DNA from: Clostridiales bacterium
GTDB lineage: Bacteria > Bacillota > Clostridia > TANB77 > CAG-508
Reading direction: 5' to 3'
DNA length: 64,000 nucleotides
Assembly (NCBI GenBank): GCA_015056485.1
Contig: SVGD01000002.1
Coordinates: 71,662-135,661, forward strand
Shown here in pieces: positions 35,785 through 58,037 of the stretch. The position numbers were made by a program, and so were the translations under genes. Below the pieces are notes generated by a model, which was not told the origin of the DNA, did no database searches, and was given only the letters and a program-made list of their open reading frames with translations. Position 1 is the first letter of the stretch. Each line of letters opens with the position of its first letter.

Positions 35785-35810
35785 ACGGACGGCTAATAGC
35801 CGCCCCTACA
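35785..35810. repeat. GC-rich CCCCTACA-type hairpin element
   Basis: ACGGACGGCTAATAGCCGCCCCTACA immediately after coaW stop. Confidence 0.7.
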
Positions 35811-36605
35811 CTATATCACCGCTCCTATGCATGTAATATATTCTGAATTTTCTGGTATTATAAATTTTATATCATGTAATTCTTCAACATGATTTAAAAT
35901 TTCCTTTGTTAATGGAATTGTTGTTAATGTTCCTGTTGTTATCACTTCTTTTATATTGTCATTTTTTAATAGAAATGCACTCATTACTCCTATTGTTTCA
36001 AAAATCATATTTATAACAGCCAAAACTAAATCTTCATCATTTGCTTTACCGTTCTTTCCAAAATTACAAACTGTTGTATCTAAATTTAAATTTGAAATTT
36101 GATTTTCTGTTATGTCTTTAACTTTTAAATCTATATTATTTAAATTTCCTTTTTGTGCAAGTTCCAAAATTTCTTCAAATGAATTAACATTAGCTAATCT
36201 TTTACATAAATTTTCTAATGTTCCTCCACCTACTCCCGTTCCTCCCATGTGTTTAATATTTTCTTTGTTCTTCCTGATAAATGCCGTACCTGTACCTATA
36301 CTTACAACAAGAATATCATCATTCTTAGTCACAAAACTAGCACCTTCTGCAACACATAGGAACTCATCTTTTATTTTTACTGGAATATCATAAATGTTTT
36401 CATCGAAATTCAGTGCTCCAATACCTGTTAAAGTTATATTTTCTATTTTCTCTATATTTATATTATTCTCTGCAATAAATTTCTCTAAATTTTTTTTTAA
36501 ATCCTTTTCTTTTGTGCTTAGTTTATACACTATTTTAAAACTATCTTTTTTAACACAAATTATTTTCGTAATACTTGTACCAATATCTACACCAATTTTG
36601 TACAT
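35811..36605 (-). CDS. coaW: type II pantothenate kinase
   Basis: 264 aa; MYKIGVDIGTSITKI, IGTGTAFI, GGTGVGGGT, NIDLKVKDI align with the Staphylococcus-type II PanK sequence as recalled (GIDAGGTLIK, VGTGTS, GIGTGGGM, TIDLKVRHIY). Confidence 0.75.
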   Translation of the reverse strand: MYKIGVDIGTSITKIICVKKDSFKIVYKLSTKEKDLKKNLEKFIAENNINIEKIENITLTGIGALNFDENIYDIPVKIKDEFLCVAEGASFVTKNDDILVVSIGTGTAFIRKNKENIKHMGGTGVGGGTLENLCKRLANVNSFEEILELAQKGNLNNIDLKVKDITENQISNLNLDTTVCNFGKNGKANDEDLVLAVINMIFETIGVMSAFLLKNDNIKEVITTGTLTTIPLTKEILNHVEELHDIKFIIPENSEYITCIGAVI

Positions 36606-36640
36606 ATTATACTCCTTTATATTTGTTATAACATATTATA

Positions 36641-36790
36641 ACGGACGACCAATGGTCGCCCCTACATTTATTTTGTATTTCTATTTAGCGCGGGTCGTCG
36701 AGGACGCCGACCCCTACATCAAAAATCCGTGTAACGGATTTTGTACTATTCACTTTTCATTTTCTCGGGTCGGTCAAGACCGCCCTCTAC
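36641..36790. repeat. cluster of four GC-rich hairpin elements (CCCCTACA family)
   Basis: ACGGACGACCAATGGTCGCCCCTACA; GCGCGGGTCGTCGAGGACGCCGACCCCTACA; AATCCGTgtaaCGGATT; CGGGTCGGTCAAGACCGCCCTCTACA. Confidence 0.75.
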
Positions 36791-36797
36791 ATTTTCA

Positions 36798-37385
36798 TTA
36801 TTTTACTTTGCTTATTGCAAGCCCATCTCCGACTTCTAATATTTCAGTTTCTAGTCTTTCGTCTTCTGTGACTTCTTTTATGTATTCTCTTAAATGTGTT
36901 ACTGCTGTTCTTTGTTTGTGTTTATTGTAATCACTCATCACATATCCTTTATACAAAATATTGTCTGCTAATATTATTGTACCTTTATGTGACATTCTTA
37001 TTGCTTCATGTAAAAATATTGGGTACTTTCCTTTTGCTGCGTCGATAAATACTATATCGTATTCATTGTTTAATGTAGGTAAAATTTCTACTGCATTTCC
37101 AACAAATACATTAATGTTCTCTTGTAAATTCATTCCTTTTATATTGCTTATAGCTTCACTTGCTCTTTGTTCATCTAATTCTATTGTATCAATTTTTACT
37201 TGAACGCCATTGTCTAGAATTATTTTTGCAAAACAAATTGCTGAATAACCTGTAGCAGTTCCTATTTCTAAAACTTTTACAGGTTTTTCTTCAATTAGTA
37301 TTTTTTCAATTACTTCTAACGTGTCATCCATTATTATTGGAATATGATTTTCTAGTGCTTTAGATTTTATTTCTTCTATATTCAT
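36798..37385 (-). CDS. trmR: class I SAM-dependent O-methyltransferase (TrmR/YrrM family)
   Basis: 195 aa, VLEIGTATGYSAICFA SAM motif, OMT family-3 layout. Confidence 0.7.
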   Translation of the reverse strand: MNIEEIKSKALENHIPIIMDDTLEVIEKILIEEKPVKVLEIGTATGYSAICFAKIILDNGVQVKIDTIELDEQRASEAISNIKGMNLQENINVFVGNAVEILPTLNNEYDIVFIDAAKGKYPIFLHEAIRMSHKGTIILADNILYKGYVMSDYNKHKQRTAVTHLREYIKEVTEDERLETEILEVGDGLAISKVK

Positions 37386-37401
37386 AAAAATTCACCTTGT
37401 T

Positions 37402-55746: not shown

Positions 55747-56916
55747 ATGTTATATAAAGATGATTTAAAAAGATATATTTTATATTGCTTTAAAAAAGGT
55801 TATGAATCTGGATTAGATGAATCAGAGATAATAAAAAAACTACCAGAAATTCCAGGTAATGAAGAAGATAAACAAAGCCTTTATAATGAGTGCAAAGCTT
55901 ATCTATTTTTAGATTCAGCTTTTATTAATCATCCCTTAATTGCTATAACTCTTGCAGAAAAATACCTTAACAACTCAGAAGGAGATATTAATCTTATAGA
56001 TGAAAAATTGTTTTCTATGTATGTAAAAAATAATCAATTAGAATTAGCTGAAACCTTCCTAGAAAATTTATTAAAAAAAGATCCAAATAATAAATGGACA
56101 CTATCAAAAAAAATCAACATGCTTAGATCTCAAAGAAAATATTCAGAAGCATTAGAATTTATAGCTGATAACTACGAAATAATTAAACATGATCCTATTA
56201 TATTTGATGCTCAGTATAAAATTCTATACAAAACAACAAAAGGTGATGCCGAAGTAATTATTAAATTGTTTGAGAGAATTCCTTCTTTAAAATTAGGTTA
56301 TGACTTAGAAAAAAGAAATGCAACTATAAAAAAACTACAAAATTATTTAGGAAAAACTTATCCTATACAAGAAAAACTTGACAATCCTGACAAAGCTATA
56401 GAATTAAGAAATAGAATTAAAAGTAAAATAAAAAAAGAACAAAGAACAAATATGTATATATCACAAAATAATGATATACACTTCATTTTTCCTATAAAGG
56501 AAAAAAAACCTACCGACATGCAAATTGTTGAACAAATAAACAATATTATTAGAAAAAATAGAAATAATATTGATAAAGAAAAAATTAATTCTTTATTAGA
56601 ATCTATGGAAAATAAATTAATAAAATTTTTCATGCAATGCCAAATATCCCATTCACAGGGTAAAAACAGCAAAGAACTAACGAAAATAGTAAAGGAATAT
56701 TCTAAAAATAATAGTTCACAATTAGATGAAACCTCAAAAAAAAGTTTAAGAGTATTAATTAATGTACTAACAGGCAGTTTAAAAAATATATATTTACAAG
56801 AACAGTGGCTAAGGTTCCAACATCAATATTTTAATGGAATATTAAATCCTAATGAAACAAAAAAAGCAAATAATTCAAATCAAAAGAAATCATCAGGTCC
56901 TACATTATACGAATAA
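55747..56916 (+). CDS. hypothetical helical-repeat (TPR-like) protein
   Basis: 389 aa, AT-rich native composition, repeated helical hairpins, Lys-rich C-terminus. Confidence 0.45.
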   Translation: MLYKDDLKRYILYCFKKGYESGLDESEIIKKLPEIPGNEEDKQSLYNECKAYLFLDSAFINHPLIAITLAEKYLNNSEGDINLIDEKLFSMYVKNNQLELAETFLENLLKKDPNNKWTLSKKINMLRSQRKYSEALEFIADNYEIIKHDPIIFDAQYKILYKTTKGDAEVIIKLFERIPSLKLGYDLEKRNATIKKLQNYLGKTYPIQEKLDNPDKAIELRNRIKSKIKKEQRTNMYISQNNDIHFIFPIKEKKPTDMQIVEQINNIIRKNRNNIDKEKINSLLESMENKLIKFFMQCQISHSQGKNSKELTKIVKEYSKNNSSQLDETSKKSLRVLINVLTGSLKNIYLQEQWLRFQHQYFNGILNPNETKKANNSNQKKSSGPTLYE

Positions 56917-56953
56917 AAAAACAATTCCCTTATGGAATTGTTTTTTTATATTA

Positions 56954-57136
56954 TTAATCTTCTTTTTTCTCTATTACTTGTTTCCCATCATAGTAACCGC
57001 AGTTTGAGCACACTCTATGTGGTAAAACTGGTTCATTACAATGTTTACATGTTGCTATTGCTGGTTTTTCTAGTTTCCATGTTGATCTTCTTGTTCTTGT
57101 TCTTTCTTTTGACCATCTTCTTTTTGGTTGTGCCAT
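56954..57136 (-). CDS. rpmF: 50S ribosomal protein L32
   Basis: 60 aa, MAQPKRRWSKERTRTRRSTW...CKHCNEPVLPHRVCSNCGYY. Confidence 0.85.
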   Translation of the reverse strand: MAQPKRRWSKERTRTRRSTWKLEKPAIATCKHCNEPVLPHRVCSNCGYYDGKQVIEKKED

Positions 57137-57252
57137 CTTTTATTCCCTCCTATGCAATCAAAATATCTATATGACTTTACATATTTTCTCATTTTTGTCA
57201 CTATGATAGTATACTAAAAATCCATATTGTTTGTCAAGTATTTTTATAGATT

Positions 57253-57966
57253 TTATTTTATTATTTCAGGATTTCCATATTTTATTCCATATGTTTCCAC
57301 TGTCATACTTTTTATCACTGGTGGTTCTATTGGTGTTGTTGTTTCATTTTCTGTTGTTTCACCTGTTTCTTCATCTGTAGTAGTTTCAACTTTAGTTTCT
57401 AAAGCTTTTAACTGATCAACTATTTCCATACCTTCTGTTACTTTTCCAAATGCACAATAATTTCCATCAAAATCTGTATAATCTTCCGCCATAATAAAAA
57501 ATTGTGCACATCCTGAATCATATCCTTGTTTTAAATAACTGTAATCTCCTGTATAATATGCCCACATTGAATAATCCTGTCTTGCTAGTCCAACTGTACC
57601 TCTCTCAAAAGATAATTTATTATCTTTAAAATCATTTTCTGCAAATTCACCTTTTATTGAGTATTCTGTTTCACCTGTACCGTCTCCATTGATGTCTCCA
57701 CCTTGAATTAACATATCCTCAACTCTATGAAATGTTAAACCATCATAATATCCTTCATTTATAAGTTTTATAAAATTTGTAACTGTGTTTAGTGCATATT
57801 CTGGGTACAATTCCATTTTTACAGTACCATAATTTTCTACTTCCATTGTTACTATTGGATTTTGATATTCAAAATTATTCTTTAAATAATAACCATATAT
57901 CATAAATGCCAATGTTGCTATTATTATTACAAGAGTAATTATACTAAAAACTAATTTATTTTTCAT
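57253..57966 (-). CDS. membrane-anchored cyclophilin-type peptidyl-prolyl isomerase
   Basis: 237 aa; N-terminal TM; FHRV, QGGD, SMWAYYTGDYS cyclophilin motifs; Thr/Glu-rich C-terminal tail. Confidence 0.8.
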   Translation of the reverse strand: MKNKLVFSIITLVIIIATLAFMIYGYYLKNNFEYQNPIVTMEVENYGTVKMELYPEYALNTVTNFIKLINEGYYDGLTFHRVEDMLIQGGDINGDGTGETEYSIKGEFAENDFKDNKLSFERGTVGLARQDYSMWAYYTGDYSYLKQGYDSGCAQFFIMAEDYTDFDGNYCAFGKVTEGMEIVDQLKALETKVETTTDEETGETTENETTTPIEPPVIKSMTVETYGIKYGNPEIIK

Positions 57967-57984
57967 TTTTTATCCTTCCTCTTA

Positions 57985-58037
57985 TGTAGGGTGAGTAGTA
58001 TTGACTAACCCGTTGGTCGGTCAATACCAACCCCTAC
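57985..58037. repeat. compound GC-rich palindromic element
   Basis: TGTAGGGTGAGTAGTATTGACtaacccgttggtcgGTCAATACCAACCCCTACA. Confidence 0.7.

Follow-up and report, generated by a model that had tools for sequence, protein, structure and literature searches.

What are the GC-rich hairpins that lie between the genes of an AT-rich gut Clostridia genome, and by what means have they come to be there? The stretch considered here, called the window hereafter, is 64 kb of a Clostridiales bacterium (contig SVGD01000002.1, positions 71,662 to 135,661), with 28% GC overall and nearly all of its genes on the minus strand. A preliminary description had counted about 15 such hairpins in it. The reading that we consider likely is that they form a population of GTAG-tagged repetitive extragenic palindromes (REPs), moved in trans by a REP-associated tyrosine transposase (RAYT) encoded elsewhere, with some copies doubling as transcription terminators. 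This reading is built on the anatomy of the units, their excess over chance, their turnover between close relatives and the physical link of identical REPs to RAYT genes in other genomes. The element is of a known type, met here in an AT-rich genome of the gut Clostridia. REP and RAYT biology is known almost wholly from Proteobacteria, and the window adds a dense population in AT-rich, spore-forming gut Clostridia.

Number and anatomy of the hairpin units

The sequence CCCCTACA occurs 17 times on the two strands of the window, for an expectation of 0.44, and none of 100 shuffled sequences reached 17. Every match falls in 35,803-58,038, and the rest of the window has none. Sixteen of them belong to 14 intergenic elements (E1 to E3 and E5 to E15, located individually in the last section) that comprise 18 hairpin units between 35,785 and 58,038. 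The remaining match, at 39,666, lies within an open reading frame (ORF), has no hairpin, and is probably due to chance. Under a strict rule, GTAG directly at a stem of 6 bp or more, 5 or more of them G-C, 14 exact units were found in the window, versus none in 50 shuffles; four further units are degenerate, with one or two changes from GTAG-GGG in the head or the stem base. Relaxed head and stem scans returned 21-24 matches, of which the REP-like ones were all within 35.7-58.1 kb; only degenerate copies at known sites were added, and nothing REP-like elsewhere in the window. These scans replaced a REP covariance model, MAFFT having set the forms with an 8-bp stem and 3-nt loop out of register with those having a 9-bp stem and 2-nt loop.

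The 14 sites are spread over 10 intergenic regions, with none within genes, and REPs are present in related low-GC contigs as well. The GC content of the elements is mostly 0.54-0.74, versus 0.28 for the background; it is 0.48 for E15, and the value of 0.44 for E11 was measured on a mis-framed interval. Single and double-foot sites fold with predicted energies of -8 to -25 kcal/mol, dimers with energies of -26 to -36 kcal/mol, and the fold z-scores of the three REPs folded are -3.3 (E9), -5.7 (E7) and -8.4 (E13). The hairpins first described are therefore real, and their count, coordinates and composition hold. No Rfam family matched the window at gathering thresholds, and no tRNA gene was found in it.

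Read on the head strand, a unit consists of a T followed by GTAG, GGG, a variable stem, a loop of 2-5 nt, the complementary stem and CCC. Stems are 8-9 bp long in the 18 units, and the GGG/CCC stem base is present in 16 of them, both exceptions being the degenerate units of E15. At least four stem types are found side by side in the window: CGACC-ATT-GGTCG (E2, E9 and E13, with E1 as a variant), [TC][CA]GGTC-NN-GACC[GT][AG] (seven units), CGATTTTAATCG (E6 and E11) and CGGACC-TTGTG-TCCG (E14); in short, REP forms can be written as TGTAG-GGGCGACC and GGTC-NN-GACC. Eight elements are single units, four are inverted dimers (E7, E10, E12 and E15) with the GTAG heads pointing outward (HH) and a spacer of 0-2 nt, and two are double-foot forms (E8 and E13). 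One cluster is seen, made of E2, E3 and E5.

The family had initially been called REP/MITE-like, by reference also to miniature inverted-repeat transposable elements (MITEs). The REP half of this label is borne out by the GTAG head at the foot of a GC-rich hairpin and by the HH dimers, whereas the MITE termini are not: TGTAGGGG...CCCCTACA represents the guide GTAG of a single REP or of an inverted pair of REPs, and not a terminal inverted repeat. The double-foot forms probably arise by loss of the centre of a dimer, an origin suggested for such REPs by Quentin et al. 2018 (PMC6006769), who proposed a central deletion of an inverted dimer. The two arms of E8 differ, one being of the TCGGTC type and the other of the CAGGTC type. 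Spacerless dimers identical to those of the window are present in L116, a metagenome-assembled genome of a Clostridia member from goat rectum (27% GC), and deletion of the centre of a dimer like that one would give exactly the E8 sequence. E8 is a concrete case of the proposed deletion product.

GTAG-tagged REPs were defined by Di Nocera et al. 2013 (PMC3733652), together with their HH and TT dimers, the pairing of G with T, a site downstream of ORFs and the overlap of some copies with the ends of genes; the survey text does not mention Firmicutes. The units of the window resemble those of that study and of Nunvar et al. 2010 (PMC2817692) in the 5' GTAG at the foot of a GC-rich stem of 6-13 bp with a 2-3 nt loop, in G-T stem pairs, in the coexistence of singles and head-out dimers, and in a position downstream of ORFs with some gene-end overlap. 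They differ in their host, a spore-forming Clostridia member of 28% GC, in dimer spacers of just 0-2 nt, and in the T that always precedes GTAG. Similarly, the REPINs of Pseudomonas and BIMEs (bacterial interspersed mosaic elements) of E. coli (Bertels and Rainey 2011, PMC3116915) share with them a unit of two inverted REPs, a single-copy associated RAYT and a slow turnover between related genomes. In contrast, the dimers of the window are nearly spacerless, and one REP sequence is common here to widely different genomes, unlike REPIN populations, which are described as confined to a lineage and inherited vertically. In the literature library that was searched, no paper on REP families in Clostridia was found; RAYTs have been noted in this class by Bertels et al. 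(PMC5581495).

Turnover between relatives and linked RAYT genes

The window was compared with a syntenic contig, L001, to which it is 92-94% identical, and with L002, a contig from Joint Genome Institute (JGI) sample 3300018878 that is 99.9% identical over 11.5 kb; contigs with 99.9-100% identity to the window are present in this sample and in 3300018475. Four elements (E2, E3, E7 and E8) are missing in L001, and at the positions of E1, E5 and E9 this contig has REPs with the same head and different stems. After the phosphorylase gene there is a REP pair in L001 and a plain AT-rich terminator in the window. Altogether, gain, loss or stem replacement was observed at seven or more positions. The presence/absence variation between related strains, proposed at the outset as a check on the family, is found. 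Between the window and L002, three of the nine mutational events fall inside REPs, which represent 2.6% of the aligned sequence (p = 0.0013), and a fourth lies just beside a REP. Inside the REPs, one difference alters a head (ATAG/GTAG), one alters a stem, and one is a TT/AA flip in the loop of a unit that is a perfect palindrome. REPs are hot spots of strain-level variation, useful in typing and a hazard to metagenome assembly.

Identical REPs are found far from this lineage. The type-b pattern GGGNNGGTCNNGACCNNCCCCTACA is present in more than 116 stretches from many phyla of a species-representative genome collection, the scan of which, with so general a pattern, returned no stretch of the window's own species. 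Gut Oscillospiraceae (Faecousia, Ruminococcus) contribute many of the matches; the pattern also occurs in Bacteroidia, Omnitrophota, Patescibacteria and Gammaproteobacteria, where it often forms inverted pairs spaced by about 110 nt. More than 120 metagenome contigs (26-64% GC), most of gut origin, contain the type-a 20-mer GTAGGGGCGACCATTGGTCG. Among contigs below 45% GC, 29 of its occurrences are intergenic, 10 are inside long ORFs and four are inside RAYT genes.

Genes of one Y1 HUH family of about 160 aa are present at 13 of the loci fetched with such patterns. The proteins score at about the Pfam Y1_Tnp threshold. Their best NCBIfam match is REP_Tyr_transpos (REP-associated tyrosine transposase), at 62-72 bits, not reaching the equivalog cutoff of 80, and IS200 scores 18-24 bits; the best PDB match is TnpA_REP of E. 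coli (4ER8, E 1.8e-6). Source annotations name family members RayT or transposase (Clostridia, Oscillospiraceae and others), and in the contigs L240-L246 the gene is single-copy and syntenic at its locus. By these matches, the protein associated with the REPs is a predicted RAYT rather than an IS200 transposase. An initial RAYT query had matched none of the first 116 loci; the matches that it gave later were all weak, and they were used as leads and confirmed afterwards with Pfam and a hidden Markov model (HMM) of the family. All-against-all clustering of the ORFs near REPs revealed no recurrent transposase.

In L254, a human gut contig of 37.6% GC, the RAYT gene is flanked by 12 REP units, including the type-a sequence GTAGGGGCGACCATTGGTCGCCCG, and ends on a stop codon supplied by the TAG of a REP head; this locus is a classical REPtron. 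In L251-L253 (a contig of 31% GC), REPs lie upstream of the RAYT gene, inside it and over its stop codon, and one of these copies comes from the JGI sample that holds the window's strain. The suspected link to a RAYT stands insofar as the same REPs flank or lie inside RAYT genes of other gut contigs; the window itself holds no such gene. The use of the TAG of a GTAG head as the stop codon of the upstream gene was seen at three places in related contigs (L001 10110-10112, L251 3067-3069 and L254 7060-7062), two of the three being RAYT genes. In the search for the RAYT of this genome, P0237 and P0328 were retrieved as the family members richest in AT. P0237, from the same JGI sample, was not accepted as coming from the same organism, its contig having 31% GC and none of the heptamer arrays of the lineage (see below).

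In most family members a REP is found inside the gene. In-frame copies are present in L170, L176, L202, L204, L240, L247 and L248. The sequence GGG CGA CCA ATG GTC GCC CCT ACA, right after the HUH motif, is read as GRPMVAPT, and the inverted copy GTA GGG GCG ACC ATT GGT CGY CC, before the motif, as VGATIGRP. Both in-gene REPs of L247 agree with E2/E9 of the window at 24 nt of 24, and the G-T wobble form is among what they share. G-T wobbles were considered, and rejected, as a proof of function at the RNA level: the same wobble form exists inside a RAYT gene, and a C-to-T bias on the non-template strand would yield them too.

The codons of the two internal REPs co-vary in a reverse-complementary way: 43 proteins combine TG with PV, 29 combine NV with TF and 11 combine SA with AL, and mismatched combinations also occur. 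These residues belong to the motifs VGA-x-I-x-RP and GR-x-x-x-APT (proteins P0121-P0348). Such co-variation indicates selection on a putative DNA or RNA hairpin within the RAYT coding sequence. In L240-L243 (10001-10489) the RAYT genes are intact, with two in-frame inverted REPs around the HUH motif, and at the syntenic locus of a related lineage, L244-L246 (10001-10501), the allele lacks exactly the REP-bounded segment (P0186/P0189). The missing part begins at the first GTAG, ends a few bases beyond the second CTAC and includes the HUH motif; the clusters of the deleted allele count 162 (P0189) and 18 (P0186) member sequences. We tentatively raise the possibility, which is open to considerable doubt, that a cognate REP pair is built into the RAYT gene, at fixed positions on each side of the HUH motif and encoding VGA-x-I-x-RP and GRP-x-VAPT. 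If so, the gene would pass on, within itself, a master copy of its REP, which would explain identical REPs, those of the window included, in genomes of 26-64% GC. It could also excise its own catalytic core, and the natural allele devoid of the REP-bounded segment may be compared to such a product. The occurrence of the same REPs in unrelated gut genomes, and embedded in RAYT genes, questions the extent of vertical REP-RAYT inheritance.

For the REPs of subclass 2.4 TnpA_REP proteins, three features have been published (PMC6006769): stems starting with three G-C pairs, double-foot REPs, and REPs inserted in frame inside the tnpA_REP gene. All three are shared by the REPs described here, with three G-C pairs at the stem base, double-foot forms of the GT[AG]G ... 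C[TC]AC type and in-frame REPs inside tnpA_REP in related loci; a patchy distribution over several phyla is also shared with this subclass, or group 4 RAYTs of Bertels. The motifs of the associated proteins (PNH[IV]H, WQK and YIxxNP) are only roughly similar to the published ones (NH[IFV]H, WQ and YIxNNP). The internal REPs described here differ in being at fixed positions beside HUH and in encoding conserved peptides, and they do not resemble variable insertions.

Proposed copying by a RAYT and its alternatives

TnpA_REP binds one strand only, requires GTAG and cuts at CT or CA beside the hairpin (Corneloup et al., PMC8266576). By analogy with the enzymes of E. coli, Stenotrophomonas and Marinomonas, the transposase acting on the window's REPs would bind the folded single strand with GTAG as a guide and cut at a nearby CT or CA. 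The units would be copied and excised, now or recently, by a single-copy RAYT/TnpA_REP tyrosine (HUH) transposase, which we infer to be encoded elsewhere in this genome. Copies are found just past stop codons on the sense, or leading, strand; a minority followed by a T-run (E1, E9 and E14) probably terminate transcription, and the others would be transcribed as stable hairpins of 3' or 5' untranslated regions (UTRs).

The orientation of the units is strongly biased. In all eight single units the GTAG strand is the minus strand (p = 0.008), and when low-GC relatives are included, 17 of 18 singles are co-oriented with the dominant gene strand and the GC skew. The GTAG strand of singles is the sense strand; judged by GC skew, it is also the leading-strand sequence, that is, the template of the lagging strand. 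Because sense and leading strands coincide, the bias fits a single-strand DNA mechanism or selection on RNA alike. E6 keeps the minus-strand orientation though it lies downstream of a plus strand ORF, which favours a role of replication, as a single data point.

Several observations weigh against transposition in trans by a resident RAYT. No RAYT was detected in the 64-kb window, either by a Pfam scan of its ORFs or with the family HMM on all ORFs of at least 50 aa, and none was found for this genome on following up the most AT-rich family members; the RAYT contig L251, in which the heptamer arrays of the lineage are missing, probably belongs to another organism. Transposition is deduced from turnover with no clean filled/empty site pair recovered between the window and L001, where the surrounding spacers have diverged as well, and deletion, slippage or recombination could also cause such turnover. 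The E2/E3 insertion, with a duplication of about 30 nt on its flanks, looks more like tandem reiteration than peel-and-paste. Replication cannot be told from transcription by the orientation bias, nearly all genes being co-oriented with the GC skew. Finally, the confinement of the REPs to 22 kb of the window is significant (p = 0.004) and explained only partly, in that a 19.8-kb capsule island free of REPs accounts for some of it and p = 0.02 is obtained when the island is left out.

Consider, then, that the RAYT which seeded these REPs has since been lost, and that the copies are fossils which decay, spread by local duplication, slippage and recombination, and are in a few cases kept as terminators. 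This is the main rival. It agrees with the absence of a RAYT from the window, with the degenerate state of E5, E11, the left unit of E12 and E15, and with the reiteration-like E2/E3 insertion, and the loss of REPtrons has been reported in some strains (PMC3733652). However, the identity of E2 and E9 at unlinked sites and the perfect palindromes of E13 and E7 speak for recent copying. At least six sites have turned over between genomes just 6-8% apart, and RAYTs of the family are frequent among related gut Clostridia, the same sample included. We regard a relic population as unlikely.

A second possibility is that the elements are ordinary intrinsic terminators, immobile, and alike through shared constraints or gene conversion. 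Nine of the sites are located 0-58 nt past the stop codon of a minus-strand gene, on its sense strand, and G-T wobbles preserve pairing on the transcribed strand. The geometry of a Rho-independent terminator, a GC-rich hairpin with a T-run within 0-2 nt on the sense strand, is found at three sites of 14, E1, E9 and E14, which probably serve as intrinsic terminators. In contrast, the other 11 have no T-run, whereas the GTAG foot is present in all; the conserved TGTAG/CTACA feet play no part in termination. Moreover, E12 is in a 5' UTR, past a T-box terminator, E6 is antisense to the nearest plus strand ORF, which has its own terminator, and the same sequences of 20-24 nt are found in unrelated genomes and inside RAYT genes. 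Terminators alone are a very improbable explanation. Movement as MITEs by a DDE transposase recognising TGTAGGGG...CCCCTACA as terminal inverted repeats is hardly credible: compound and double-foot forms do have inverted termini (TGT...ACA), but eight elements are single-foot with an otherwise intact hairpin, no target-site duplication is seen at E7 or E8 in the comparison with L001, and no DDE transposase recurs near the copies in about 230 loci, whereas the Y1 HUH family does.

In this AT-rich host genome the elements stand out by their composition, sit right against stop codons and mark the ends of transcription units.

Individual elements and neighbouring sequences

E1 (35785..35810, minus strand) is a single REP, TGTAGGGGCGGCTATTAGCCGTCCGT on the minus strand followed by TTTTT, and is terminator-like; it starts one base after the TAG stop of a pantothenate-kinase-like gene (35811-36605). 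The cluster follows, with all three units on the minus strand: E2 (36641..36666), a single REP TGTAGGGGCGACCATTGGTCGTCCGT that is the same as E9 over 26 nt; E3 (36688..36718), a single REP TGTAGGGGTCGGCGTCCTCGACGACCCGCGC; and E5 (36764..36792), a single REP with a degenerate head (TGTAGAGGGCGGTCTTGACCGACCC), 5 nt past the stop codon of a methyltransferase gene. Four hairpins had been placed in this cluster, at 36641-36790; three are REPs, and the fourth is an AT-rich hairpin.

E6 (39980..40003, minus strand) is a single REP, TGTAGGGGCGATTTTAATCGCCCG, located at the border of a strain-variable segment. This segment (39220-41934) contains three plus strand ORFs with no Pfam match (39448-39921, 40599-40994 and 41203-41643). 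Only two pieces of 60 nt align with L001, and about 1.2 kb, E6 included, is extra in the window.

E7 (42358..42409) is an HH dimer with a 2-nt spacer, 4 nt past the cmk stop codon, and it is one of its loops that is TT/AA-flipped in L002. E8 (43129..43158) is the double-foot REP TGTAGGGGTCGGTCTTGACCTGCCCCTACA with arms of different stem types. E9 (44154..44179, minus strand), a single REP, is followed by eight T and lies 13 nt past the stop codon of a glycosyltransferase gene. E10 (48312..48362) lies between thrS and rpsO and is an HH dimer whose units are 1 nt apart. Five elements had been described as compound, with an outer stem enclosing two inner hairpins; those at 42358, 48312, 51066 and 57985 are dimers, and the one at 43129 is a single chimeric hairpin.

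E11 (48551..48581, minus strand) is a single REP with the stem GGGCGATTTTAATCGCCC and a degenerate second foot, CTCTACA. Unlike the form originally given, it ends in CCCCTATA in this strain; the head is ATAG here, and the canonical GTAG is shown by the 99.9% identical strain, L002.

E12 (51066..51116) is an HH dimer placed after the T-box terminator and ahead of the ribosome-binding site of the NTPase-thrS operon; one of its heads is GTAGGAG here and GTAGGGG in L002. As first proposed, this hairpin separates a T-box leader from the regulated gene: in an Rfam scan by E value, the leader was found at 51,171-51,371 on the minus strand as a full-length match (80.9 bits, E 6.5e-18). The score is below the Rfam gathering score of 93, so that a threshold-based annotation would miss the leader.

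E13 (51457..51485) is a perfect double-foot palindrome of 29 nt, TGTAGGGGCGACCAATGGTCGCCCCTACA, 7 nt past the stop codon of a PAP2 gene; the form beginning with ACGGAC that had been given for this position is wrong. E14 (52169..52194, minus strand) is the single REP TGTAGGGGCGGACCTTGTGTCCGCCC, followed by TTTTCATTTATTT, and is terminator-like. E15 (57985..58038) is a degenerate HH dimer, enriched in AT, that separates the stop codon of the iPGM gene from the start of a cyclophilin gene.

The island devoid of REPs (13000-32990, 19.8 kb, 25.6% GC) is missing in L001. It carries capsule and polysaccharide genes (CpsB, Wzy, a flippase, glycosyltransferases and LytR) and is placed between the pyruvate kinase and glucan phosphorylase genes. 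With no REP in about 20 kb, it illustrates how REPs help to flag recently acquired DNA.

Other repeats were noticed in the intergenic regions. A second family is made of long imperfect hairpins of heptamer arrays, with (GAAGTGN)n opposite (NCACTTC)n and numerous G-U pairs when read on the sense strand (window 6668-6765, 35690-35775 and 47690-47790; L001 3900-4010 and 4740-4790). Their fold z-scores are -4.4 and -4.6, they are located between terminators and promoters, and one of the L001 arrays occupies the position of E7. Arrays poor in G and rich in A and C (TCCAAAC-like, with a period of about 7-8 nt) are present at 44060-44112, 48230-48300, 51400-51450 and 52080-52130, where they immediately precede the -35 box of good sigma-70-like promoters and often come after a REP. 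An AT-rich element of about 110 nt, with a perfect 46-nt palindrome and TTGACA, lies in the thrS-rpsO spacer of the window (48411-48522) and in a glycosyltransferase-Asp23 spacer of L001 (2779-2889). Because the loci differ, it is a second intergenic element of variable location.

Two coding regions are split into more than one ORF. The NTPase (DUF84) gene upstream of thrS (50380-51019) consists of two overlapping ORFs (50711-51019 and 50380-50886), both of which match the same family in the JGI annotation of L002; the split reflects either a frameshift or programmed slippage. A SpoIID-like region (53083-54075) is divided into several short ORFs (53083-53325, 53466-53870 and 53821-54075) whose spacer resembles coding sequence, and it may correspond to a pseudogene or to sequence errors.

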